The notes under the pieces are model-generated. The model made no database searches and was not told the origin of the DNA. It saw nothing but the letters and a program-made list of their open reading frames with translations. The position numbers were made by a program, and so were the translations under genes. Source: Candidatus Hermodarchaeota archaeon (GTDB lineage Archaea > Asgardarchaeota > Heimdallarchaeia > Hodarchaeales > Hodarchaeaceae). Taken from it: DNA of 32,000 nt. Location of the stretch: assembly GCA_048886185.1 (NCBI GenBank), contig JBHLKY010000012.1:139313-171312 (forward strand), in the 5' to 3' direction. Below are positions 3,031-26,279 of the stretch, piece after piece; the stretch's first letter is position 1; each line of letters starts with the position of its first letter.

Positions 3031-6000
3031 TTATATAACTGGTATTTCCTCTTGAGGATTCGTATTATTTGGTACAACCACGTTTACTTCAGGCCTGCTT
3101 CCTATCCATAGAGCTTTGTAAACTACTTTCATATCAATCTTAAGAACTTTTGTGAACATATCTAATGCTTCACTAAGAGTAATTGAAGGAGTATCTCGTA
3201 AGAGAGCTAAAGATTTATCAAAAAGGTTTATCTGAGCTTTAGGATCAGTAATACTGGCATCTAGGTTCGCTTTCACGATTGCTAAGCGTTTAAGCGCATT
3301 TAATGAAGCTCTAGAAATACTAGAAATTGAAATACCCCGTTTGAATCTCTCTTCTATGTATTTAATGCGTCGACAATCAATATAGAAGGGGGAAAGAAGA
3401 GTTACTGGGAAATGCTGCTTTACAACTTTCTCTGTCATAGATCCCACGAGGACTTCATTAACAACACCCAATTCATGTAGAGTTATTTTTTCTTCAATGT
3501 TTCTCATAATTGAAATGAATGAGGATTTTATATATTCTGGTGGTGTCTCTTTTAAAAATAAGAATATTTTAAATGAAGGGGAAGACACAATTAAGATCTG
3601 AACTTTATTCTTCTCGATAATACTTGTTCTAATACTTTCTTCAATTTGATTTTCTAACAGTTCAGAGTCATGTTCAATGAATAAGTTAACAATATCTGAT
3701 TGAAATGACTCTAAAAAGGAATCGATACCAACTGAAAGACCACCTAACACATCCTGTATCGCACTACGCGATTGATACATAATATTATTTGTATTATAAA
3801 TTGGAATGCCTACAGCAGTGGTAACTAAGATCATATAAGTGTTTAATAAGGATTCTAACCTTTTTTGATATTCACTGATCTCAGATATCTTCTGTTTCTT
3901 CCGCTCTTGATAGGTGATTGAAACTGTATAAACCACAATCACAATACACATCGTACATAAAATTGTCAGAATTACTGCTTCAAGTATAGAATCAAATATT
4001 GGAGGGGGAGGAAAGAAAAATGTAAATTCTCTTCTGATTGAGCCATTTGATTGATTAACTGAATCATATACTTCTATAAACCATTTAAAAGTTACTGTAT
4101 TGTGGAAAGAGAGCATTATTGTATAATGGGTTTGATTAAAAGTCATTGGAACTCTTTTCATCAGAGATTCGGATCCATAACCACCTGTTTCTTCAAGAGA
4201 AGTAATTTCATAATTCAAATATACTTCAGAGACTCCTGAACCCCAATCTGAGATATTTGCCCAGATATTTATTGTAGTTTTATTAATACTGTCAATTCCA
4301 GCCGAATGGATTATTGGTTCCCACCAATCAAACATCTGACCAGAGTTTGTGTACAGGCCTGCCTCATAATGACCCTTAAGAACTCCTTCATCGATAACAT
4401 GTATGATATAGGAGAATTTATGCAAATATTCTATCTGTATCTGATAAGTGTAATGAGATCCATTTAAAATCATTTCAGTTTCATTTAAAATCCATTCGTC
4501 ATACGTATCATCTTTCACTGATAATGTAATACTGTGTGTATTGAATAGATCATATAGCTTACACCATAACAGGAGTTCTCCAATATATGATGTTGATGCG
4601 GTTGTTCCATGGTTAACAACCTTTGCTGGTTGAAAGTTTGATGTTCTTTGATTTATCTCTCCTATGGTTATATTATTTAATGCAGTATCATATATCTTAA
4701 TGTAATAATTGAATGTCTGGTTAGAATCCACAATAATTGATTCGACATAATGTGATCCGTTATAACGCATTTCTTTTTTTTCTATCCATGAACCAAATCT
4801 ATTCAAGAAATTTATGGTAAGGTTGACACTATCAATAACACCAAATGGATCAGTAGCATTAGCCCAAAAGGTTAACAGGCATTCATATTGATTCCAAGTT
4901 GTGTTTAAAAAGCCAAATTCATAACAAATTGGATCTGTTTTATCATAAATAGTGATTTTTTGGGGGGAAGTGGATATATTGTTTCCACTATTATCAAAAG
5001 CAGTAATAAAATACCAGAAAGCACGATCAGGAACAAATCCATGTATATAGTAAATGTAAATGTTACCAGTTCCATTCCAATGCATTACTAGTCCGCTATA
5101 ATCAGAAACGTATGTGTAATCCAAGAGAACAGATGAATTATCATCAAATAATCCACTACCATAAGGACTCTCTTCAACTTCAGCCCAGATGACAACTGTT
5201 CCATTCTGGTACACAATTGATTCAGTTCTCGTAATATGTGGAGGAGCATTATCAGAAATTGTTATACTTTTAGAAATGACCCCCAAATTCCCCGCATTGT
5301 CTTCTACCCAAACTTTGATTAACACTTGATCTCCGAAAGGAAAGGTATAGGATGTTTTATATCGATAAAAGACATCATAATCCATTTCCAATAATATATG
5401 ATTCTCTAAATGAGTGAAATTAACATAAAAAGTATTATTCACATAGTAATTATCCCCGTAAGGATCAATCGCATATACAAAGACGGTTATTTCACCATCA
5501 TTCTCAGTAGAGTTTTCAATTGAATATATAATTATCGGGGAAACAGTATCAGATAATGTAAAGTTTGAAGCTTGATCATTTCCTAGATTATACCAATTAC
5601 CTGTAGTATCAACTGCTGATACATAATACCAAAGACTCTGTAAATTATATTCCAATGAATCAATGCGAGTAAAAAAAATAATATCTGATAATCGATTCAT
5701 TGAAAGATTAGTCCATGTTCCAAAATAATTCTGTGAATATAACAAATAAGCAGTAGTATCATTTAATGGCCAGTCAAGTATTTCAGCATAGAAGTCTACT
5801 GTGCCATTTCCCCAATCTATTTTCCAACATGATACAATAGGTATTGAATTATCATCTATAATGAACGGCCCCTGAATTATTGATGTATTCGAGTTATTGG
5901 CAAAATCTGATGCAGTAATCCAATAGTAAACAACATCATTGCATTGAAGCGCCAAATTATAATAAAAGTGCTCTTCTGATTCAATCATATAGTATGAAAG

Positions 6001-9000
6001 GATATCACCATTTATATCTAGATGTAATTGTACATTACTCTTATTAACACCGCTTTGATAATCATTGTGATCCTCTATAGATACATAAATCTCTACATGA
6101 CCATGGAAATGAGAATCAAAATTATCTAATATATCCTCCTCATCAATAGGTGGTGCTTCATCATCATCAGGGATAACCGTGCAAAAAGGAGGAGATAATA
6201 AGGAAACTTTTGATCCATTTTCATTTCCTAAACTATCTATTGCAGAATAAACCGTGTAGTTTAAAAGCACACCATATTTTGCTTCAAAATAACATACCCA
6301 AAACCCAGTAATGTTTTGATGCATTTCTAGAAAACGATTATTTACCTGCAATATTACAGGATCCATTAATAAACTCATATTATCTGTAATATTTGCATAA
6401 AACTGAAGTGTTCCATTCTGATAATCAGTAACACCATATTCAACAATAATGGGAGGAAAACCATCACCTAAATAAAGAGATTTAATATGAGTTACAATAG
6501 TATTATTTGCGACATCAATAGCAAGAATATTGTAAAAAATCTGAACATCTATATGGGTTAACGAATCCAATGCTGTTGCATTGTAAAATTGGTTATAAGA
6601 AAATTCTTCCATCGTAAAATTTTCATGAATAAGAAGAACTTCATCCGTTATATTGATTACAGTTAAATTGATATAAACTTCAAAGCTGCTCTTATCACTA
6701 ACATTAGCAAAAAAGGTAGGAGAGTTTTCGAAAAGAATGGAAGTATTAATAAAATAGAATTTATGCACTAGAGGAGGATCATTATCAGTAAATTCAGAGA
6801 CAATTACTGTGAACTCATACTTAGGATTAATCTGATAGGTTGAATAAGCAGCAAATTTAAGAAATGCAAGAGTTTTGTTAATTGAGTCTTCAAATTCTAC
6901 TGTTATATTATAATAATTATAAGGTAGATTTGAAAAGATAGCATACCCTAAATTTGTTGTATTTTGTGTCCAAGTAATTGTTGCATTGTTAAAATTTGTA
7001 ATGTTCACCCTAGCATTAGGAACAATCTTATTATCTAAATCTAAAACATTAATACGCACAGTTGCGTTCTCAGGGCCTCTCTCTAGATCTGCAATTATAT
7101 TTCCGTAAACATCATTATTTTCCTCATCAAAATAAATTACGTAGAGTCTTTCTGATGAAATGAAATCAGTCCGTAATACATTCCAAGCACTTTGAGTAGT
7201 GCTAACTCGACGCCCTGATCCCCAAGATTCTCCCCCGTCAGTTGAATTCTTTACAAAAACTGTATTATTGATGATATAAACAGCATAGAGATCATTATTT
7301 GAAATATCATAAATAGGTTTTGCTTCATCTCCATTTATTCCACAATTTGTAACTATATCAGTTTTTTGACTCCAAGAGCGGTTGTGATCAAAGAATACCC
7401 ATGTTTCTAAATCCCCTGTTGCGCTTAGAATATCATTATTAAGAATAGCATAAATATTATGAGTGTTTGGATCTATTGTTGCTCCCCAATTAGCATTGTT
7501 ATTATAAGAATCTTCTGGAAGTATTGTCTCAGAAATGATAGTTGTTACAAAGGTGGGAGAAGTATCCCATGTATCCAAATCCTCATTATAAGTAAATGAA
7601 TAAAGAGAATTTTCAGAAGCATCTTCATAAAGGCAAAGAATATCTCCACCACTTAGAGGAAGGAGTTGGCCATGGTCATCATCATCCATTAAGAAGGAAT
7701 ATGGAGGAGTAATATCATACCAACTAGAATCAAACTTGGCAAATTGGGGTCCATAGGTCATCCAAGAAGCACCAAAAATTAATCCATCAGTTGAAACTGT
7801 TACTGTACCACCTCCATCAGGTGCATTGTGGGATCCACCAGAAGGCATAATTACGGTCCATTCCCCACTAGAAGAGTCATCTTGAGTATCGAGGTAATTA
7901 TATACCATTTCATCGTCACTGATAGAGTTTGCAACAAAATGGATTTTTGTACCCGTATTATTGGGTGTCCACTGGTCAAACCAACAACTAAAACTTCGAA
8001 ACCGATATTCAGGAGGACCACAATCAATGTTAATTGGACCTTCCCAGATAGTCCCATTATCAGTTGTTTTATAATAGATTATCTCAGCCATACCACCGTT
8101 TGTCTTTTGGAAAAAGATATACCCATGAGAATTATTAATAAAAACGATATTTGGCCCTGGGTTGTATTCATCAGTGGCATCATAAACATCGGTATCAATA
8201 ATGACCTCCGATCCATCCAAAACAACACTGGAGTCTCTTTGTTCTTCAAAACTAACTGTATAGAAGTTTTCCGGATCGTGTTGGTTATTGTACTCAGTTA
8301 TGATCCAATCTGCAGAGATAATTCCCTTATAAAGACGTAACTCGTCAATTACTCCCGCAAATTTCTCATCACCACCATAAGTCTGATCAAGAACGAGACG
8401 CCCGATTTGATAATTACCAATAGTACCGAATGTAGGATTCCCCGTATTGCTCATACTACCCTCATCAAGACCATTTACGTACATTTTACCTATATTTTCG
8501 CTTTGGTTAGCAGTAGCAACTATGTAAATCCATGATTGTCCAGGCCAAGAGGTAGTAGTGCTATCTACATAATCAAAATTACTACCACCAATACCTTCTA
8601 CCTTTGAATAGAGCGCTCCATTATTTCCATGAAAATTATCTTGACCTGCAAAAGTAAACGCCATATTATAGGCATCGTGGTTATAATGGCCAAAAATTGG
8701 CATGGATTCAGCTGAATTTGAATTGAAAGGGGCATTTAATTGCACCCAAGTTGAGATACTATAATTTCCAGTCCCAATTCTAGGATCCCATACACCTAGA
8801 CTAATATAATCATCTATACCATCAAAACCTCGTGCTCTCCCTATTTTACCGACTTCATCAAAAGACCCTTGACTTGTTCCATCAACACTATTTGATGAAG
8901 AACCCATTAGGTCTGTATCTAAATGCCAAACTCCCACATAATTGTCACCCCATACACCAATAGCATTTTCTTGATTTTCAATGGTAGAATTCCCGTAATA

Positions 9001-9609
9001 CATCGATATTGTGGTATTTACATCACTTGATAGAAATGGTAATCGAATCCATGCCACAAGCAATGCATGAGATCCATTGTATGTTACATCAAAATGTTCT
9101 ATCTCATGATCAAGTGTTTTATTTAATGAATCTTTGAAAATAATGTCATCACCATCAACTTGGGTGTGATAACGAAGATCATTATCATAAAGTACTATCA
9201 GTACAGGAAAATCACTCAGATTGGCCTGAACATTACCTCCATCTATTGTAATATTTTTGCGATACTGAAAAGAAGGGGCTCCCCAATTTATGTTTTGAAT
9301 GTCAGCCTTAATAGGGAATGTTAATTGTCTTTCATTTTGATATGAGTTAGAAGGGAAAGATAAGCATGGGTTTAAATTCTCTGGATAATTTATTCCGTTT
9401 TTTTTATTGAATGAGCTTATGTTGAAAGCATTGCCTTTTAGCTGGGGTACTCTTAAGTACTCGTTTTCAACTTTAACCATCTGATTATGAAGAGGGTTTA
9501 CCTGAATAAAAAATTGGGAAAAAAGCGTTAATATAATCATAAATAAAAGGAATTTCAACCTTTCTACTCTTTTTCTGGATTTCATTTCACTATACTCGTA
9601 TTTAATCAC
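3031..9609 (-). CDS. Giant single-pass surface glycoprotein: DUF2341-like, LamG-like, Asp-box propeller, about 9 Ig-like repeats, TM helix, cytoplasmic longin-like domain
   Basis: N-terminal hydrophobic segment. 'YRKNITID...LSDFPVL...WIRLP...ISMYYGN' is DUF2341-like. 'VGVWHLD...FDGIDDYI...FAGVIDELRLY...WIITEYNNQ' is LamG-like. Asp-box-like TTDNGTIW and STDGGESW. Repeated D-x(1-3)-P-P/x-I units, many N-x-S/T sequons, TM helix at about 3910-3987. Confidence 0.8.
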   Translation of the reverse strand: MIKYEYSEMKSRKRVERLKFLLFMIILTLFSQFFIQVNPLHNQMVKVENEYLRVPQLKGNAFNISSFNKKNGINYPENLNPCLSFPSNSYQNERQLTFPIKADIQNINWGAPSFQYRKNITIDGGNVQANLSDFPVLIVLYDNDLRYHTQVDGDDIIFKDSLNKTLDHEIEHFDVTYNGSHALLVAWIRLPFLSSDVNTTISMYYGNSTIENQENAIGVWGDNYVGVWHLDTDLMGSSSNSVDGTSQGSFDEVGKIGRARGFDGIDDYISLGVWDPRIGTGNYSISTWVQLNAPFNSNSAESMPIFGHYNHDAYNMAFTFAGQDNFHGNNGALYSKVEGIGGSNFDYVDSTTTSWPGQSWIYIVATANQSENIGKMYVNGLDEGSMSNTGNPTFGTIGNYQIGRLVLDQTYGGDEKFAGVIDELRLYKGIISADWIITEYNNQHDPENFYTVSFEEQRDSSVVLDGSEVIIDTDVYDATDEYNPGPNIVFINNSHGYIFFQKTNGGMAEIIYYKTTDNGTIWEGPINIDCGPPEYRFRSFSCWFDQWTPNNTGTKIHFVANSISDDEMVYNYLDTQDDSSSGEWTVIMPSGGSHNAPDGGGTVTVSTDGLIFGASWMTYGPQFAKFDSSWYDITPPYSFLMDDDDHGQLLPLSGGDILCLYEDASENSLYSFTYNEDLDTWDTSPTFVTTIISETILPEDSYNNNANWGATIDPNTHNIYAILNNDILSATGDLETWVFFDHNRSWSQKTDIVTNCGINGDEAKPIYDISNNDLYAVYIINNTVFVKNSTDGGESWGSGRRVSTTQSAWNVLRTDFISSERLYVIYFDEENNDVYGNIIADLERGPENATVRINVLDLDNKIVPNARVNITNFNNATITWTQNTTNLGYAIFSNLPYNYYNITVEFEDSINKTLAFLKFAAYSTYQINPKYEFTVIVSEFTDNDPPLVHKFYFINTSILFENSPTFFANVSDKSSFEVYINLTVINITDEVLLIHENFTMEEFSYNQFYNATALDSLTHIDVQIFYNILAIDVANNTIVTHIKSLYLGDGFPPIIVEYGVTDYQNGTLQFYANITDNMSLLMDPVILQVNNRFLEMHQNITGFWVCYFEAKYGVLLNYTVYSAIDSLGNENGSKVSLLSPPFCTVIPDDDEAPPIDEEDILDNFDSHFHGHVEIYVSIEDHNDYQSGVNKSNVQLHLDINGDILSYYMIESEEHFYYNLALQCNDVVYYWITASDFANNSNTSIIQGPFIIDDNSIPIVSCWKIDWGNGTVDFYAEILDWPLNDTTAYLLYSQNYFGTWTNLSMNRLSDIIFFTRIDSLEYNLQSLWYYVSAVDTTGNWYNLGNDQASNFTLSDTVSPIIIYSIENSTENDGEITVFVYAIDPYGDNYYVNNTFYVNFTHLENHILLEMDYDVFYRYKTSYTFPFGDQVLIKVWVEDNAGNLGVISKSITISDNAPPHITRTESIVYQNGTVVIWAEVEESPYGSGLFDDNSSVLLDYTYVSDYSGLVMHWNGTGNIYIYYIHGFVPDRAFWYFITAFDNSGNNISTSPQKITIYDKTDPICYEFGFLNTTWNQYECLLTFWANATDPFGVIDSVNLTINFLNRFGSWIEKKEMRYNGSHYVESIIVDSNQTFNYYIKIYDTALNNITIGEINQRTSNFQPAKVVNHGTTASTSYIGELLLWCKLYDLFNTHSITLSVKDDTYDEWILNETEMILNGSHYTYQIQIEYLHKFSYIIHVIDEGVLKGHYEAGLYTNSGQMFDWWEPIIHSAGIDSINKTTINIWANISDWGSGVSEVYLNYEITSLEETGGYGSESLMKRVPMTFNQTHYTIMLSFHNTVTFKWFIEVYDSVNQSNGSIRREFTFFFPPPPIFDSILEAVILTILCTMCIVIVVYTVSITYQERKKQKISEISEYQKRLESLLNTYMILVTTAVGIPIYNTNNIMYQSRSAIQDVLGGLSVGIDSFLESFQSDIVNLFIEHDSELLENQIEESIRTSIIEKNKVQILIVSSPSFKIFLFLKETPPEYIKSSFISIMRNIEEKITLHELGVVNEVLVGSMTEKVVKQHFPVTLLSPFYIDCRRIKYIEERFKRGISISSISRASLNALKRLAIVKANLDASITDPKAQINLFDKSLALLRDTPSITLSEALDMFTKVLKIDMKVVYKALWIGSRPEVNVVVPNNTNPQEEIPVI

Positions 9610-11254: not shown

Positions 11255-11809
11255 CTAACAATAATGTTTAGTAATGATCTTATACCCTAATATTGAAAAA
11301 GCTTGGTCTACATTCTCTCCTGATTTCGCAGAGGTTTCAAAATAATCAATGGTATCATGTATATTTGAAAACTTTTTGGATAGCCGATTTTCAATATAAT
11401 TCTTTGCGGTGTCAATAGGAACCTTAATTTCTTTTGTTAAATCCCTTTTATTCCCTAGAACAATTATAGCAGAGTTTTGTTCAGTATTTTTTGAATACTC
11501 CTGTAACCACCATTCCAAGTTTTCTAAAGAATCTGGACTAGTTAAGTCAAATACCAAAAAAGCTCCAATTGACCCTTTATAATACAGTTTTCGGATTTGA
11601 TCGAAAGTTGGTTGCCCTGCTAGATCCCATATTTGAAAACGAAGATTTTTGGGGCCATCTGAAGTTTCTAAAGATACTTGTTTAAAAAGAAAATTAGCAC
11701 CAATTGTAGGAATGTATTCTAAAGTAAAATCCTCTCCTACATATCGACTCATTAGAGATGTTTTTCCTACTTTTCCATCTCCAAGCAAGCAAATTTTCGT
11801 AAAAATCAA
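11255..11809 (-). CDS. Rab-like small GTPase (paralogue 3)
   Basis: GDGKVGKT, YIPTIG, IWDLAGQ, YYKGS, LVFDLT, NKRD, ETSAK. The TTG start is preceded by an in-frame TAA, and an out-of-frame ATG lies at 11829. Confidence 0.93.
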   Translation of the reverse strand: MIFTKICLLGDGKVGKTSLMSRYVGEDFTLEYIPTIGANFLFKQVSLETSDGPKNLRFQIWDLAGQPTFDQIRKLYYKGSIGAFLVFDLTSPDSLENLEWWLQEYSKNTEQNSAIIVLGNKRDLTKEIKVPIDTAKNYIENRLSKKFSNIHDTIDYFETSAKSGENVDQAFSILGYKIITKHYC

Positions 11810-17402: not shown

Positions 17403-18455
17403 ATGCCAATTAAAACTAATATTACTGAGATGCTAGGAATAGACCATCCTATTATCGCAGCACCAATGGCACCTTTTCATACCACGGAATTGACTGTTGC
17501 TGTTTCAGAAGCGGGGGGATTAGGAGTCTTATCACAAATTGGTCTTTTAGATGAAAATAAAAATCCTGTTGAAGAAATGAAGAAGAACATGAAATATGTT
17601 GTAGAACATACAAACAAACCTTTTGGATTCAACATCCGAACCTCGAGATTAGAACCATATGCTACCGATTTATGCTCTGAAATACCAAAATTTATTTCAG
17701 AAAATCAACGAATTAAAGATCAATGTGTATATGCTTTAACAAGTGCAGGGTCAGCAAAAACTCTACCAAACTCTAAAAATTTTCAAAAATTAAAGAAAAA
17801 ATCCCAGATAAAACATTTTCATGTTGCACCTGCATTATGGTTGGCTGAAAAAAGTATAGCAGCTGGAGTAGATGGATTAGTAATTACAGGAAATGAGGGA
17901 GGTGGTCATCAATCATATGAAAAGGTGAGTACGCTGGTTCTTCTCCAACAAATTCAACAAAAATATCCAGATATGCCTAGAGTTGCATGTGGAGGGTTTG
18001 CCACAGGTGAAGGATTAGCTGCAGCATTATCACTAGGAGCGGGCGCTATTGCTATGGGATCAAGATTCATTGCTTCTAGGGAATGTGAATTCCATGAAAC
18101 CTATAAAAGTGTCATTCCACCTGCTAAAGCCCAGGATACTGTACTAGTCACAGGAATTTTAGGCCCCATTCGATTATGGAAGAACGAATATTCTCTACAA
18201 ACTCATGCGGATCTAGTTGCTAATAAAAGAGAGAAATTGGCAAAGGAAGCGGAGATGAACACAGCAGCGTTAGCTAAAGCAGCCCGTGCATATGATATGG
18301 CTTACCAAGGGAATGTAAATGATGGTGCTGTTCTCCTTGGCCAGAGTATTGGTTTGATTGATAGGATTGAGAGCGTATCAGACATTATTGAAAGAATTGT
18401 AAAAGATGCCGAATTAGCTATTGGAAAGGCGATAAGTCGAATAGAGTATGTATGA
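17403..18455 (+). CDS. Nitronate monooxygenase / FabK-like FMN oxidoreductase
   Basis: 'LGIDHPIIAAPM', 'AVSEAGGLG', 'GNEGGGH', 'ACGGFATGEGLAAALSLGAGAIAMGSRF', 'GQSIGLI'. Confidence 0.92.
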   Translation: MPIKTNITEMLGIDHPIIAAPMAPFHTTELTVAVSEAGGLGVLSQIGLLDENKNPVEEMKKNMKYVVEHTNKPFGFNIRTSRLEPYATDLCSEIPKFISENQRIKDQCVYALTSAGSAKTLPNSKNFQKLKKKSQIKHFHVAPALWLAEKSIAAGVDGLVITGNEGGGHQSYEKVSTLVLLQQIQQKYPDMPRVACGGFATGEGLAAALSLGAGAIAMGSRFIASRECEFHETYKSVIPPAKAQDTVLVTGILGPIRLWKNEYSLQTHADLVANKREKLAKEAEMNTAALAKAARAYDMAYQGNVNDGAVLLGQSIGLIDRIESVSDIIERIVKDAELAIGKAISRIEYV

Positions 18456-18498
18456 AAGAATTATCATACTTTATTTTCTTGTTTCTAAGAAAAAATAT

Positions 18499-18900
18499 TT
18501 AAGTAATTGTTATTTCCAAAAATACCCTTTCATCAGGTTTTTTCCAGAATTTTAATTTCTGGAACATTTTAAAGGTGCTTAAAAGTATTTTATTGAATCC
18601 TCTATTAAATTTCAGATCCAGTGCTTCCTTAGCTTTCGACTCCTCTGATTCTGGTAAAATACGAACAGTAACATCCATATCATCACCAAGGATTTTTCCC
18701 CGTATTGTACAAGGAGCAATTTTAGCCTGTGAGTTCTGTTTGATGCGCTTCACTTTCCATGAATTTGCCCTTGTGTTCACATATAGTCTCTCATCTAGAG
18801 TAGCAAATTCTACAGGTGTGGCGACTCCTTTTCCACTCGGATAAAACGTGATGAGACTAATGTATTTGTATTTCGATAAATTTTCGTACTGGTTTGTCAT
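18499..18900 (-). CDS. PPOX-class (pyridoxamine-phosphate-oxidase-like) F420-dependent oxidoreductase
   Basis: 'YISLITFYPSGKGVATPVEF', 'SWKVKRIKQN...IAPCTIRG' match the PPOX/F420 family pattern. Confidence 0.85.
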   Translation of the reverse strand: MTNQYENLSKYKYISLITFYPSGKGVATPVEFATLDERLYVNTRANSWKVKRIKQNSQAKIAPCTIRGKILGDDMDVTVRILPESEESKAKEALDLKFNRGFNKILLSTFKMFQKLKFWKKPDERVFLEITIT

Positions 18901-19115
18901 TGAATATCCTCTAAATCAGTTGATTACGCATTAAATTACAATTAAAACCTATACATAATGATTCTTTGAATTTTCCTTTTACGAAAAAGATAATTTTAAG
19001 TTAGAAGTAATAAGTAATTTTATTAGAGGTTTATAAAAATATCAAACATAAACTTCGCTTAGATACACTCCTCTGCGAAATCCAAAGAAATTAATTACAT
19101 TTACGTGATATAATT

Positions 19116-20834
19116 ATGAACACAGCGAACTCTGACGATCATTCTCTTGATAAAGATTTTATTCGGAAAATTGTTTCAGATGATGTTAAAAACAACAAAA
19201 ATAATAGTCGTGTACATACTCGTTTCCCCCCAGAACCAAATGGATGGTTACACATAGGCCACGCGAAATCAATTCATCTTAACTTCAGTATCGCAGCTGA
19301 GTTCAATGGATTATGTAATCTACGATTTGACGATACAGATCCCGCCAAAGAAAGCATGGAATATGTAGAGGCTATTAAAAAAGATATTCAATGGCTTGGT
19401 TTTGATTGGGAAGACAGACTTTATTTTGCATCGGATTATTTTGAACAGTTATACCAATTGGCAATGGGATTAATTAAAGCTGGAAAAGCATATGTATGTG
19501 ATTTAAGTGTAAAAGAGATCAAGCATCAAAGAGGAACATCAGAAGAACCAGGAATGGAAAGTCCCTATCGAAATCGATCAGTAGAAGAAAACATCAAGTT
19601 ATTTGAGAGGATGCGCAATGGAGAGTTTGAGGATGGATCTCGGGTGCTACGGGCGAAAATTGACATGACCTCTCCCAATATGCTTATGCGAGATCCAATA
19701 ATGTACCGAATAAAGAGGGTACCACATTATAGAACTGGAAATGAGTGGGTGATTTATCCAAGCTATGATTATACTCATGGTCAATCTGATGCAATCGAGG
19801 GAATTACTCATTCCCTCTGTTCGTTAGAATTTGAGACGCATAGACCCCTTTATAATTGGTACAGAGACCAACTTCTGAAATTAAACTTGTTAAAATACTG
19901 TCCTGAACAAATTGAATTTTCTAGATTAAATTTAACTTACACTGTTATGAGTAAGCGACGGCTTCTAGAGCTGGTTGAACAAGGACATGTTTCTGGATGG
20001 GACGATCCCCGAATGCCAACTCTTGCAGGATTACGTAGACGTGGTTATCCAGCGGAAGGAATAAGAAATTTCTTGGATAAAGTGGGAATTTCAAAGAGAG
20101 AAAATTATATTGATGTAGGTCTCTTAGAAGCATGTGTACGCGAAGTAATGGACAGAGAATGTAAACGAGTTATGGGAGTTCTCCATCCTCTGAAAGTTAT
20201 AATTCAGAACTATCCCGAAAATAAGGTCGAAGAATTAGATTCGCCCAATCATCCCAAGGATCCCAGTATGGGATCACGGAAAATACCATTCTCCCGAGTA
20301 ATATACATTGAACACGAAGATTTTCTTGAAAAACCTTCAAAGAAATTTTATCGATTAACCCCAGAAAGAGAGATACGACTTCGATACGCGTATTATATCA
20401 AGTGTGTAAATGTAATTAAAGATGAGAATTCTGGAGAAATCCTGGAATTACACGCGACCTACGATCCGGAAACAAAGGGAGGGTATGCTCCAGACGGTCG
20501 AAAAGTCAAAGCGACTCTCCATTGGGTTTCAGCTGAACATGCAATAGCAGCAGAAGCACGCTTATACGACCGACTTTTCAACAAGGAAAATCCAATGGAA
20601 AATGTAAAATTCACCCAAAATCTTAATCCAAAGTCACTAGAGAAGTTAACGTGTTTTGTAGAGCCAAGTCTAGCAAATGCAGCACCAGGAAACAAATATC
20701 AGTTTGAACGTTTAGGTTATTTCTGCGTAGATTTAGTCGATGCAACACCAGAAAAATTAGTTTTTAATCGAACAATTACCTTACGTGATCCCTGGTCTAA
20801 AATCAAGAAGACTCAGAAATCTATAAAGATGTAA
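19116..20834 (+). CDS. glnS: Glutamine--tRNA ligase (bacterial-type GlnRS)
   Basis: '[19 protein letters not shown]', '[10 protein letters not shown]', '[27 protein letters not shown]', 'VMSKR', '[10 protein letters not shown]', 'KATLHWVS', 'QFERLGYF', 'FNRTITLRD'. No eukaryotic N-terminal extension and no C-terminal YqeY domain. Confidence 0.95.
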
Positions 20835-20853
20835 ACACAATAAATAATAACAT

Positions 20854-20859
20854 AAAAAA
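20854..20859 (-). terminator. Oligo-T terminator after tRNA-Gln(CUG)
   Basis: T6 run on the minus strand 4 nt after the discriminator base. Confidence 0.55.
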
Positions 20860-20862
20860 GAA

Positions 20863-20934
20863 CAGCCCCGCCCGGAATCGAACCGGGGTCATCGGATTCA
20901 GAGTCCGAGGTGATAACCGCTACACTACGGGGCT
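20863..20934 (-). tRNA. tRNA-Gln(CUG)
   Basis: AGCCCCG-TA-GTGT-AGCGGTTA-TCAC-C-TCGGA-CTCTGAA-TCCGA-TGAC-CCCGG-TTCGATT-CCGGG-CGGGGCT-G. Full cloverleaf, no intron, no encoded CCA. Confidence 0.97.
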
Positions 20935-20967
20935 TCAAGTAAGGTTTATTTGTATTTCACTTAGTTT

Positions 20968-20975
20968 AAAAAAAA
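20968..20975 (-). terminator. Oligo-T terminator after tRNA-Gln(UUG)
   Basis: T8 run on the minus strand 4 nt after the discriminator base. Confidence 0.55.
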
Positions 20976-20979
20976 TGAT

Positions 20980-21052
20980 CAGCCCCGTCCGGATTTGAAC
21001 CGGAGTCGAGAGGGTCAAAGCCTCTTATGCTAGTCCACTACACCACGGGGCT
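20980..21052 (-). tRNA. tRNA-Gln(UUG)
   Basis: AGCCCCG-TG-GTGT-AGTGGACTA-GCAT-A-AGAGG-CTTTGAC-CCTCT-CGAC-TCCGG-TTCAAAT-CCGGA-CGGGGCT-G. No intron, no encoded CCA. Confidence 0.97.
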
Positions 21053-21240
21053 CTATTTTTCTGACTTTCACTTATTTTTTTAAGCTCTTCTTTTCCCTTA
21101 TATTTTTCTCACTCACTACCTCTTCAATTTATACATTACTTCTATTTAAATCAAATAAACTTCGTCGATATCGATATAGATCATAACTTCTATTGATCAA
21201 CTTCTTGATCCTACGATAATTTTGATCTCTTGCTACTTAT

Positions 21241-22371
21241 TTAAGATACAGGTTTCCATAGAATACCCAATTCTTCAGCTTTTTTTCGCGCTAAGGTTAA
21301 TTCTTCAAAGGTTATCCCCCGATTAATCCATGCGTACTTGTCACGGTATTTTTTCACTTTATGCATAGGTCGATACTGCCCCATGATATTTACTAACGCT
21401 TTTGGAACGTTCTCAGCACACCACTCTAGAATGGGATATGTATCAGCTTCTACTCGTCCTGGCATTACCAGATGACGAATTATCATCTCCCCAGATCCAT
21501 GATCATGAGCCATTTTAATATTTCGTGTAATGACTTCCCAGTAATTTGGTATTTTAGACATTTGCTTAGCAAAGACATCATTTGCATATTTCAAATCAGG
21601 AAGCCAAAAATCCATCACTTCTAGTAATAGCTTCATTCCCTCAATGCTTAGATACATGTTAGAATTCCATAACTGGCAAATATTAACTTTAAATTCATGA
21701 AGAGTATGGAGAATTATGTGAAGATTTGATGTAGGATCGCCTCCAACCCAATTAATATTGCGAGCTCCGTCCTGAGCCAGTCCCCCCGCAATAAGAGCAA
21801 GTTGAGGCGGTTTGTAAACGAAACCAGCTCTTATTTTTCCACTTTTTGGATCTCGCCACTCTTGACTAATTAAATGATTTTGACAAAAAACACAGTTGAA
21901 AGTGCATCCTGAAAAAAAAATTGTCCCTGAAGGAACAAGTACAGTTTCTTCCCCTAGATGTAAATCAGCAGAACTAACAATTGCATCCTTTCCAACTTTG
22001 CAAATACCAAGCTCTCCAAACTCACGGTTTTTTTCACATCTACGTTCACAAAAACAACATTGCTTAAGTATCTCATCTGCAATTTTTATCTTCAAATCAA
22101 GAAAAGAAGGGGTAACTGGAACTGGAACAACTTTTGCAAAAGACTCTTCATCATATTCAACAATGTATTTTCGGAATTCTTCAGATAAACGGTCATGTTC
22201 CTTCCACAATGAATGTAAATCAGCATCTAAACCAATTTCTAGTTTTATTGCTTTTATTAAGAGATAACGAGCTATTTTCTTTTCATCAATTAAATGATAA
22301 TAGCGGTTAAGTCGCTTAACAACTTCTGGAATTTTCCAAACAGAAATCGGATCAGGTCTTGTACGCCACAT
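21241..22371 (-). CDS. PflX-like radical SAM protein (pyruvate formate-lyase activating enzyme-like)
   Basis: CxxxCxxC 'GCTFNCVFCQN', N-terminal 'CCFCERRC...GICKVG', 'NINWVGGDPT', 'LWNSNMY', 'DFWLPDLKY', 'IIRHLVMPG', 'NIMGQYRP'. Confidence 0.9.
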   Translation of the reverse strand: MWRTRPDPISVWKIPEVVKRLNRYYHLIDEKKIARYLLIKAIKLEIGLDADLHSLWKEHDRLSEEFRKYIVEYDEESFAKVVPVPVTPSFLDLKIKIADEILKQCCFCERRCEKNREFGELGICKVGKDAIVSSADLHLGEETVLVPSGTIFFSGCTFNCVFCQNHLISQEWRDPKSGKIRAGFVYKPPQLALIAGGLAQDGARNINWVGGDPTSNLHIILHTLHEFKVNICQLWNSNMYLSIEGMKLLLEVMDFWLPDLKYANDVFAKQMSKIPNYWEVITRNIKMAHDHGSGEMIIRHLVMPGRVEADTYPILEWCAENVPKALVNIMGQYRPMHKVKKYRDKYAWINRGITFEELTLARKKAEELGILWKPVS

Positions 22372-25661: not shown

Positions 25662-26279
25662 ATGAAAACAAATCAAACAGTACGAATAATAATTCCTTTA
25701 ATACTACTTTTAGGTACCGCCACTGCTTTTATTGTAGCGGTAATAGGTAATCAACAAATAAATACCTCAACTGAAGAGCTTCAGGAGTCGAATACAGTTG
25801 CAGGTGGTTTTGTTATGTACCTTCACGTTGATGACATAAATGGAGAAGCAATTGAAGAAAACCATGAAGATTGGATTGATGTCCTCGCATATTCACACAA
25901 TGTCAGGATTCCAGATTTAACAGATCCAACGCGTTCTGTAGGCGTACGACAACATACTCCCCTCCGAGTTACAAAAATGGTAGATAGAGCCTCTCCTAAA
26001 CTATACCAATTCTGTGTTGATGGAAACTCGATCGCTTCAGTGAAATTAGAGTTCTGTATGACTAATGAAGGGCATTCAGTGTTTTATAAAATTGAACTCC
26101 AAAATGCTAGGATTGTTTCAGTACAAGATTATGGGATGTCGTCTGAGGATATCCCTACTGAGACGGTTTCATTTGTATATGAAAGAATAAAATGGGTTTA
26201 CACTCAATACGATTCACAAGGAAAAGCATTGGGAAACGTAGAGACAAACTGGATCACTTGGGGTGAGTCAGCAAGTTAA
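25662..26279 (+). CDS. hcp: Hcp-family (type VI secretion tube-like) protein with an N-terminal hydrophobic anchor or signal peptide
   Basis: 'MYLHVDDINGEAIEENHEDWIDVLAYSH', 'RQHTPLRVTKMVDRASPKLYQ', 'YKIELQNARIVSV', 'PTETVSFVYERIKWVY' are typical Hcp segments. About 50-aa N-terminal extension with 'IIIPLILLLGTATAFIVAVIG'. SD-like GGTGA at 25650-25654. Confidence 0.9.
   Translation: MKTNQTVRIIIPLILLLGTATAFIVAVIGNQQINTSTEELQESNTVAGGFVMYLHVDDINGEAIEENHEDWIDVLAYSHNVRIPDLTDPTRSVGVRQHTPLRVTKMVDRASPKLYQFCVDGNSIASVKLEFCMTNEGHSVFYKIELQNARIVSVQDYGMSSEDIPTETVSFVYERIKWVYTQYDSQGKALGNVETNWITWGESAS

Follow-up and report, generated by a model that had tools for sequence, protein, structure and literature searches.

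A bacterial-type glutaminyl-tRNA synthetase with a linked pair of G73 tRNA-Gln genes beside the GatDE route in a Hodarchaeales archaeon

Introduction

Archaea have classically had a single route to glutaminyl-tRNA (Gln-tRNA), which combines a non-discriminating glutamyl-tRNA synthetase (GluRS) with GatDE, and according to textbooks a glutaminyl-tRNA synthetase (GlnRS) is absent from all of them. This work deals with a locus of a Hodarchaeales (Asgard) genome in which a gene for such an enzyme, glnS, lies next to two tRNA-Gln genes. The stretch of DNA analyzed, here called the window, comprises 32,000 nucleotides (C12:139313-171312), and positions below are those of the window unless a contig is named. 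The absence of GlnRS from all archaea was also stated in a review of 2022, in which the mismatch between the archaeal discriminator base of tRNA-Gln (A73) and the bacterial one (G73), together with further differences of archaeal tRNA-Gln and its co-evolution with GatDE, was given as a barrier to transfer (PMC9499178). The discriminator belongs to the Gln identity set of Escherichia coli (PMC9976931). A single sentence of a 2024 preprint mentions GlnRS beside cox genes in Hodarchaeales and Kariarchaeaceae (10.1101/2024.07.04.601786), and NCBI annotates these archaeal GlnRS proteins under the name of a GlnRS/YqeY fusion. In the open literature (subscription journals were outside the search), no analysis of an archaeal GlnRS or of its tRNAs was found.

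The source is a metagenome-assembled genome (MAG) of 4.84 Mb in 75 contigs, 96% complete and with an estimated contamination of 5%. It probably possesses two parallel ways to Gln-tRNA, a bacterial-type GlnRS with a dedicated pair of G73 tRNAs and, beside it, a retained route of A73 tRNAs and GatDE. The new elements provided here are a genus-wide census of the two tRNA sets with its signature of selection, the co-residence of GatDE on closed chromosomes, a chimeric N-terminal domain in the GlnRS of sister families, and explicit topology tests.

The Glutaminyl-tRNA Synthetase

The open reading frame (ORF) had been called a clear glnS of bacterial type in the first-pass annotation, which was made from the sequence alone, and both parts of that call have been borne out. 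Its product, which includes [20 protein letters not shown] and QFERLGYF, scores 716.1 bits against the glnS equivalog TIGR00440 (cut-off 425.8). Against the archaeal gltX model TIGR00463 it reaches 349 bits, under the cut-off of 401.75, and thus falls outside that family. The Pfam domains are PF00749 (tRNA-synt_1c) and two beta-barrel anticodon-binding domains (PF03950 and PF20974), and the signature motifs are present as LHIGH (residues 45-49) and VMSKR (residues 277-281). Compared with GlnRS of known structure, the protein gives 691 bits with P. aeruginosa, 665 with E. coli, 575 with T. thermophilus and 475 with D. radiodurans among bacteria, and 455 with human and 414 with yeast among eukaryotes; GluRS structures reach at most 262. 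Among NCBIfam models, the GlnRS/YqeY fusion NF011291 scores highest (821 bits), with a match over positions 2-564 of 769. The protein stops at residue 572 and has no YqeY domain, which makes the automatic product name given by NCBI misleading. A eukaryote-type appended N-terminal domain (about 200 residues) is likewise absent, the query having 12 residues ahead of the position that matches residue 7 of the E. coli enzyme.

The key residues were tabulated in E. coli numbering over 226 sequences, 30 of them from Heimdallarchaeia. The query and all 30 carry the same residues as E. coli at R30, E34, H40, H43, D66, Y211, S227, C229, F233, Q255, K270, R341, R402, R410, Q517, E519, and R520. We take R30, Y211, S227, C229, F233, and Q255 to form the Gln pocket, position 229 presumably being Arg in GluRS, and R341, R402, R410, Q517, E519, and R520 to be the readers of U35 and G36 in the anticodon. 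In six archaeal GluRS sequences, Arg occupies the 229 position and Phe or Ile the 255 position, and the GluRS of this same genome has Arg aligned to C229, where the GlnRS has Cys. Judged by these residues, the ORF is a catalytically intact, genuine bacterial-type GlnRS. Direct glutaminylation by this enzyme, which had been put forward for the lineage as a possibility, is very probable. Class Ib paralogues with other roles do exist (GluQRS matches at no more than 77 bits), and the protein might be a GlnRS-like paralogue without a part in aminoacylation, such as a regulator or a tRNA modifier akin to GluQRS, although nothing specific points to it here. Such a role is highly improbable for a full-length protein that has both anticodon-binding barrels and every catalytic and Gln-pocket residue, and that scores far over the equivalog cut-off.

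The exceptions are two readers of the acceptor stem. E. coli D235, which we assume to read G3-C70, and L136 are aligned to T241 and S142, respectively. At the D235 position this genus (family f1) has Thr or Ser, and two sister families with GlnRS, f3 and f7, have Val or Ile, so that all GlnRS of Heimdallarchaeia are devoid of Asp or Asn there; one of these two residues is found in 70 of the 77 close bacterial homologues, and Ile, Val, Thr, or Asn in eukaryotes. At the L136 position, the genus is divided between Ser and Leu (six each). The loss of Asp/Asn at the D235 position accompanies tRNA-Gln without G3-C70 in Heimdallarchaeia.

Two Classes of tRNA-Gln

The gene glnS ends 28 nt from tRNA-Gln(CUG), which is followed by tRNA-Gln(UUG), both tRNA genes being convergent with glnS. 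This layout, first noticed from the sequence alone, is confirmed by ARAGORN and Rfam (Table 1). The linkage is therefore real, but the description of a compact locus holding the enzyme and both tRNA-Gln genes has to be corrected, as ARAGORN with intron detection finds four tRNA-Gln genes in the genome, the other two being intron-bearing and located on contigs C3 and C14. Two other ARAGORN calls of tRNA-Pyl in the genome may be artefacts similar to the one noted for C14 in Table 1. The acceptor stem AGCCCCG/CGGGGCU, with A1-U72, is common to all four genes. Both linked tRNAs end CGGGGCU-G, and some of their orthologues encode G-CCA. By their sequence, the two are clearly host-derived paralogues of archaeal tRNA-Gln and not bacterial imports.

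The linked tRNA-Gln(CUG) has A1-U72, G2-C71, C3-G70, G10, A37, and G73, and tRNA-Gln(UUG) has A1-U72, G10, A37, and G73. With respect to the E. coli-type identity set, the pair carries G73, G2-C71, G10, U35, G36, and A37. It departs from that set at U1-A72, G3-C70, and U38, in whose place A1-U72, C3-G70, and C38 or A38 are found; the weak first acceptor pair is thus retained.

For the census, 23 genomes of the genus and of the order were searched for the shared 5′ end of the tRNAs, and every match was retrieved. Every one of the 12 GlnRS-positive genomes in the genus has a tandem UUG and CUG pair with G73 and A37 (24/24 genes). The dispersed tRNA-Gln copies of these genomes, where the 3′ end is readable, are all A73, and those UUG copies with A73 that can be read unambiguously within the genus have G37. 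Eight GlnRS-negative genomes have A73 copies only. The sole apparent exception is G136, a genome that was scored as GlnRS-negative but has a G73 pair; the pair stands right where a contig begins, and the assembly of this genome probably just missed glnS. A survey of synteny, which had been suggested as a check, shows that the pair adjoins glnS in 11 of the 12 GlnRS-positive genomes, this one included, and that glnS and tRNA-Gln are also linked in several genomes of a second family. Because of this recurrence, the linkage is not due to chance. In the remaining genome, the closed G241, glnS and the G73 pair are both kept although they lie 117 kb apart, which indicates a coupling beyond adjacency.

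Compensatory changes have occurred across the genus in six stem pairs of the CUG tRNA and in three of the UUG tRNA, with G73, A37, and A1-U72 invariant. By this pattern of substitution the G73 genes evolve like working tRNAs, and both glnS and the tRNAs bear the mark of purifying selection. It had also been proposed that glnS arrived by integration at the tRNA-Gln locus. This idea finds no support in the data and is rejected, since the linked tRNAs are derived, intron-less G73 paralogues, A73 copies lie elsewhere, and the pair is 117 kb away from glnS in the closed genome. In the search for an empty site, the downstream radical-SAM gene was sought in GlnRS-negative species; only a 49-51% paralogue was found, and no orthologous empty site could be defined.

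Some further peculiarities of these tRNAs have been noticed in the relatives. Introns of their tRNA-Gln genes (L011, L019, L032, L129; L147, L143, L121, L137) lie at non-canonical positions, with D-loop introns in some G73 UUG copies and T-loop introns in some A73 copies. In three GlnRS-negative genomes, A1 of tRNA-Gln stands opposite C72 or G72.

Two Probable Parallel Routes to Gln-tRNA

The components of the indirect route are still encoded in this genome. As a check of the rest of the assembly, gatD (470 bits) and gatE (558 bits) were both found over their cut-offs on contig C59, and the archaeal GluRS on contig C7; no gatA or gatB was found in this genome. In the class, gatD is present in 58 of 62 genomes, including four closed chromosomes that also carry glnS (G256, G241, G026, and G074). 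The direct route is an addition to the indirect one and not its replacement, as had been implied at first, because GatD, GatE, and the archaeal GluRS are all kept, also on the same closed chromosomes. Two side observations concern the same enzymes. Genomes of family f7 (G123, G187, G229, G235, G259, and G289) have two full-length gatD each, over the cut-off, beside GlnRS. In a GlnRS-negative species of the genus (L154, from G102), the HIGH motif of the archaeal GluRS reads HIGN, and the branch of this enzyme is very long (3.3 substitutions per site) in comparison with the GluRS of GlnRS-positive species.

How the two routes came to coexist may be pictured as follows. A bacterial-type GlnRS would have entered Heimdallarchaeia from bacteria long ago, and would now be inherited vertically in this Hodarchaeales genus. 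The tRNA-Gln genes of the host (CUG and UUG) would have been duplicated, and the copies would have lost their introns and gained G73 (and, within the genus, A37). The GlnRS would charge the linked G73 pair directly with glutamine, and the original intron-bearing A73 tRNAs would stay on GluRS and GatDE, which convert Glu-tRNAGln to Gln-tRNAGln. Each of the two routes would probably favor its own tRNA set. This pairing of enzymes with tRNAs is an inference based on what is known of G73 in recognition by bacterial GlnRS, on the long-term upkeep of both tRNA classes, and on the change at the D235 position.

Several points weigh against this assignment. The A1-U72 pair, which we take to be a determinant for GatDE, is kept in both tRNA sets. 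Position 37 is ambiguous in the intron-bearing CUG copies with A73, and a GlnRS-negative genome of family f4 has A37 together with A73, so that A37 is not diagnostic outside the genus. Some MAGs lack both glnS and the G73 pair, but as these genes are physically linked, this does not count as independent evidence. Finally, GlnRS coexists with A73 tRNA-Gln in the Heimdallarchaeaceae, and G73 is thus not indispensable for every archaeal GlnRS. This last point also favors the main alternative, namely that the system is redundant or in the course of replacement: GlnRS would charge all four tRNA-Gln with no partition between routes, G73 would merely improve efficiency or be a by-product of duplication, and GatDE with the non-discriminating GluRS would be a back-up not yet lost. 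Overlapping Gln-tRNA routes are tolerated in many bacteria, and A1-U72, G2-C71, G10, U35, and G36 are common to both sets. However, G73 is found in every linked gene and in no readable dispersed gene across species whose GlnRS are only 67-84% identical, and so invariant a split between G73 and A73 points to long-term selection on two distinct classes. GatD, moreover, occurs in nearly every GlnRS-positive genome of the three families, which is hard to fit with a transient state. We therefore regard redundancy as rather unlikely and retain the two parallel routes as the probable arrangement.

The locus shows that the barrier to the entry of GlnRS into archaea was crossed and suggests how: the Hodarchaeales may have duplicated both tRNA-Gln isoacceptors, retuned the copies to G73, and kept the originals for GatDE. 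It represents a natural experiment in the fitting of a foreign synthetase into a translation system, and comes close to a natural orthogonal pair of aminoacyl-tRNA synthetase (aaRS) and tRNA.

Distribution and Chimeric Enzymes of the Sister Families

In the phylum, GlnRS scores over the cut-off in 40 of 301 genomes, all of which belong to three Heimdallarchaeia families of one class. The families contribute 11 of 20 genomes in this Hodarchaeales genus (plus the present one), 21 of 29 in f3, and 9 of 11 in f7. The other families sampled yielded no GlnRS (0/76 and 0/68 in the largest two), nor did about 230 genomes sampled from other Asgard classes. Family f3 corresponds to the Heimdallarchaeaceae, to which Ca. 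Heimdallarchaeum endolithica and Ca. H. aukensis belong.

The GlnRS cores of f3 and f7 are 55-60% identical to the query, and are preceded by an N-terminal extension of about 80 residues. This extension is colinear with residues 6-78 of the GluRS of the query genome (35-37% identity; E 5e-13 and 3e-16) and can be aligned as well to positions 2-86 of the model for archaeal GluRS. On this alignment, the f3 and f7 enzymes are chimeras in which an N-terminal domain homologous to that of archaeal GluRS is fused to a bacterial-type GlnRS body. The possibility that the extension is the N-terminal domain of eukaryotic GlnRS was tried and rejected (hhalign probability of 1.2%). Pfam gives nothing significant on it, the best match being GatF (E 0.003, in 2/11 members). 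An AlphaFold model of the domain has a predicted local distance difference test score (pLDDT) of 80; Foldseek against the PDB returned nothing at E <= 0.001, and VIA-align gave generic helical matches only, with the YqeY C-terminal subdomain (Z 4.9) within noise. The tandem tRNA-Gln genes of Ca. Heimdallarchaeum, 13.5 kb from glnS, have A73 and encode CCA. Two different accommodations thus seem to have been made, as the sequences suggest: the tRNAs were retuned in Hodarchaeales, and a domain was borrowed by the enzyme in Heimdallarchaeaceae.

Between the tRNA-Gln genes and glnS of three f3 genomes lies another tRNA (L024:1171-1242(-), L030:1132-1206(-), and L034:1165-1239(-); Rfam 50 bits), with a tRNA-Gln-like acceptor AGCCCUG...CAGGGCU-A-CCA and a 6-nt anticodon loop UUUAGG. 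It is called 'Stop|Leu (ta)' by ARAGORN, and may be either a copy of tRNA-Gln in decay or a decoder of an unusual kind. Among the metagenomic homologues of GlnRS, P0047, P0048, P0051, P0060, and others have 692-717 residues and 66-68% identity to the query, and bear an extra PF01588 tRNA-binding domain (EMAP/Trbp111-like).

Origin of the Enzyme

The set used for phylogeny comprised the 30 sequences of Heimdallarchaeia, 77 named bacterial homologues, 113 cluster representatives, and archaeal GluRS as outgroups; the eukaryotes confirmed among the representatives are Plasmodium, Perilla, Anaeramoeba, and Diplonema. Three trees were built: FastTree (226 rows), a quick IQ-TREE (103 rows), and a careful IQ-TREE under LG+C20+F+G4 with posterior mean site frequencies (PMSF; 72 rows). 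The quick search is unreliable, a constrained tree being better by 56 log-likelihood (lnL) units, and the conclusions rest on the 72-row analysis. All three trees recover the genus as a clade (support 99-100) and f3 with f7 as another (99-100), and place the main eukaryotic clade (100) elsewhere. In the 72-row tree, the genus falls inside a bacterial group of Desulfobacterota, Nitrospirota, Acidobacteriota, Planctomycetota, and Chloroflexota (94/83), and the rest of the backbone is weak. The bacterial sister varies with the tree, being Poribacteria in one and a deltaproteobacterial MAG in another. A constraint that holds all Heimdallarchaeia together raises the likelihood by 7.9 (P value of the approximately unbiased test, p-AU, 0.58), and in the resulting tree their clade lies within the bacterial group, with the eukaryotes as sister to everything. 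One acquisition is accordingly as likely as two. The query is 60-67% identical to its closest bacterial homologues, as compared to 40-47% for eukaryotic GlnRS. By similarity and by the best trees, the GlnRS is of bacterial type and most likely of bacterial origin, in agreement with the horizontal acquisition first suggested. The acquisition would be old and followed by vertical inheritance within the genus, because glnS has the base composition of the genome itself and its divergence is similar to that of a neighboring gene (83-84% for GlnRS and 77-78% for the radical SAM protein in the same genomes).

A bearing of the locus on the origin of eukaryotic GlnRS, also suggested at first, finds little support in the best trees, where the gene groups with bacteria and apart from the main eukaryotic clade; yet a clade of Heimdallarchaeia and eukaryotes costs 14.75 lnL units and is not rejected (p-AU 0.35). 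The GlnRS of Heimdallarchaeia could then be the stem of eukaryotic GlnRS instead of a late bacterial import, and the archaeal ancestor of eukaryotes would already have possessed the enzyme. With this would agree the constrained tree that beat the quick free search on 103 rows (a search that is itself unreliable), the loss of Asp/Asn at the D235 position in both groups of enzymes, and the proposal that Hodarchaeales are the closest relatives of eukaryotes (PMC10307638). The identities given above and the bit scores against PDB entries (665-691 for bacterial as compared to 391-455 for opisthokont-type enzymes) speak for bacteria, however. Every free tree sets the main eukaryotic clade apart from Heimdallarchaeia, the tree of best likelihood nests their monophyletic group among bacteria, the gene is missing from the genomes of other Asgard classes sampled, and the f1 enzyme is devoid of the N-terminal domain of the eukaryotic type. 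We consider such a stem position quite improbable. The fuller version, in which this lineage is the direct ancestor of eukaryotic GlnRS and direct glutaminylation beside GatDE, on duplicated tRNA-Gln, was already in place in the ancestor, is equally doubtful. If it were true, eukaryotes would have kept the GlnRS branch and lost GatDE, which would turn around the classical picture of a eukaryotic origin of GlnRS with a spread to bacteria. With a bacterial origin as the favored reading, the locus still reopens the timing of the entry of direct glutaminylation into the eukaryotic stem, its hosts being, among archaea, the closest to eukaryotes.

A separate observation in the same trees concerns an apicomplexan-type GlnRS group (P0121, P0127 of Plasmodium inui, and P0150; PDB 4p2b), which branches apart from the main eukaryotic clade. 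P0121 and P0127 score 615-665 bits, closer to the type of bacteria and Heimdallarchaeia; the human enzyme scores about 455.

Integrity and Features of the Locus

The source being a fragmented MAG with some estimated contamination, a bacterial fragment might have been joined to, or binned with, an archaeal genome. Against such an artefact, glnS has a central position on its 171-kb contig, with Ras-family GTPases and HTH_10 regulators on its flanks along with further genes typical of Asgard archaea; GC content is uniform, around 35% in every contig; and the tRNAs that adjoin glnS have an archaeal scaffold. The closest GlnRS homologues are 76-84% identical and belong to MAGs under the names Hodarchaeales, Heimdallarchaeota, or Promethearchaeota. 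The same glnS-tRNA locus is found in closed chromosomes of 4.94 Mb (CP070695.1) and 3.16 Mb, positions 18400-21400 are covered by single contigs of flat depth in two sequencing runs (possibly from the source sample), and a 508-nt contig from a different study spans 20664-21171, that is, the end of glnS and both tRNAs. On account of the Asgard-like neighbors, the closed chromosomes, the flat depth, and the independent bridging contig, the contig is genuinely Asgard, and chimerism or contamination is excluded for practical purposes. The questions of taxonomy and coverage raised with the early description are thereby settled.

The features of the locus are collected in Table 1. A scan for sigma-70 promoters is not informative for an archaeon. 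Elsewhere in the window, a 205-residue protein (25662-26279(+)) contains a type VI secretion system (T6SS) Hcp domain (E 2e-33) in this archaeal genome, and an ORF of 2192 residues extends over 3031-9609(-). Among the 20 annotated ORFs of the window, to which this large ORF does not belong, no cox family was found.

Table 1. Positions of glnS, the tRNA-Gln genes, and other features of the locus and its relatives
Feature	Position	Strand	Remarks
glnS	19116..20834	(+)	572 aa; bacterial architecture; no appended N- or C-terminal domain
T-rich run directly after tRNA-Gln(CUG)	20853..20862	(-)	Probably an archaeal transcription stop; within the 28-nt spacer to glnS; read from sequence
tRNA-Gln(CUG), intron-less	20863..20934	(-)	ARAGORN; Rfam RF00005 65.7 bits; discriminator G73 = base 20863
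Spacer with eight-T run after tRNA-Gln(UUG)	20966..20979	(-)	Read from sequence
tRNA-Gln(UUG), intron-less	20980..21052	(-)	ARAGORN; Rfam 58.3 bits; discriminator G73 = base 20980
A/T-rich TATA-like stretch	21071..21083	(-)	19-31 nt upstream of tRNA-Gln(UUG); candidate archaeal promoter of the tRNA pair; read from sequence
Ras/Rab-like small GTPases (two)	2054-2632 and 11255-11809	(-)	Pfam Ras, E 1e-42 to 1e-44; typical of Asgard genomes
tRNA-Gln(UUG), intron-bearing, A73	C3:137779-137892		ARAGORN with intron detection
tRNA-Gln(CUG), intron-bearing, A73	C14:26674-26782	(-)	Mislabelled by ARAGORN as tRNA-Pyl(cta)
Chimeric GlnRS genes of f3 and f7	L012, L017, L020-L027, L029-L031, L033, L034, L036, L037		

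Comparison with Known Systems

The closest counterpart of the enzyme is bacterial GlnRS (E. coli GlnS, 1GTS/1QTQ; P. aeruginosa, 5BNZ), with which it shares architecture, length, HIGH and KMSKS motifs, Gln pocket, and anticodon readers. The tRNAs linked to it share G73, G2-C71, G10, U35, G36, and A37 with the partners of the bacterial enzyme. In contrast to the bacterial systems, the host here is an archaeon, GatDE coexists with the enzyme, and Thr and Ser are aligned to D235 and L136. Unlike bacterial tRNA-Gln, the linked tRNAs have an archaeal body, with A1-U72 and not U1-A72, C3-G70 and not G3-C70, and C38 or A38 and not U38. As regards the archaeal indirect route, all its parts are present (the GluRS on C7, gatD and gatE on C59, and the A73 tRNAs with A1-U72 on C3 and C14), and the difference lies in the added direct route, which has tRNA copies of its own. 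The Deinococcus-type GlnRS/YqeY fusion (NF011291) is similar in its GlnRS body, whereas the archaeal protein has no YqeY domain.

Among archaea, the GlnRS of Heimdallarchaeaceae (UJG44574.1 of Ca. H. endolithica and UJG41767.1 of Ca. H. aukensis) and of f7 resemble the present one in the loss of the Asp at D235, in the retention of gatD, and in having tRNA-Gln often nearby; they differ in the additional GluRS-type N-terminal domain of about 80 residues and, in Heimdallarchaeum, in tRNA-Gln with A73 and an encoded CCA. A more distant parallel is offered by GluRS1 and GluRS2 of H. pylori and by other duplicated aaRS-tRNA systems, in which the tRNAs of one amino-acid family are partitioned between two enzymes by the identity of the acceptor end. 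In those systems it is the enzyme that has been duplicated and not the tRNAs, whereas in this archaeon the tRNAs have been duplicated and the second enzyme appears to be a foreign import.

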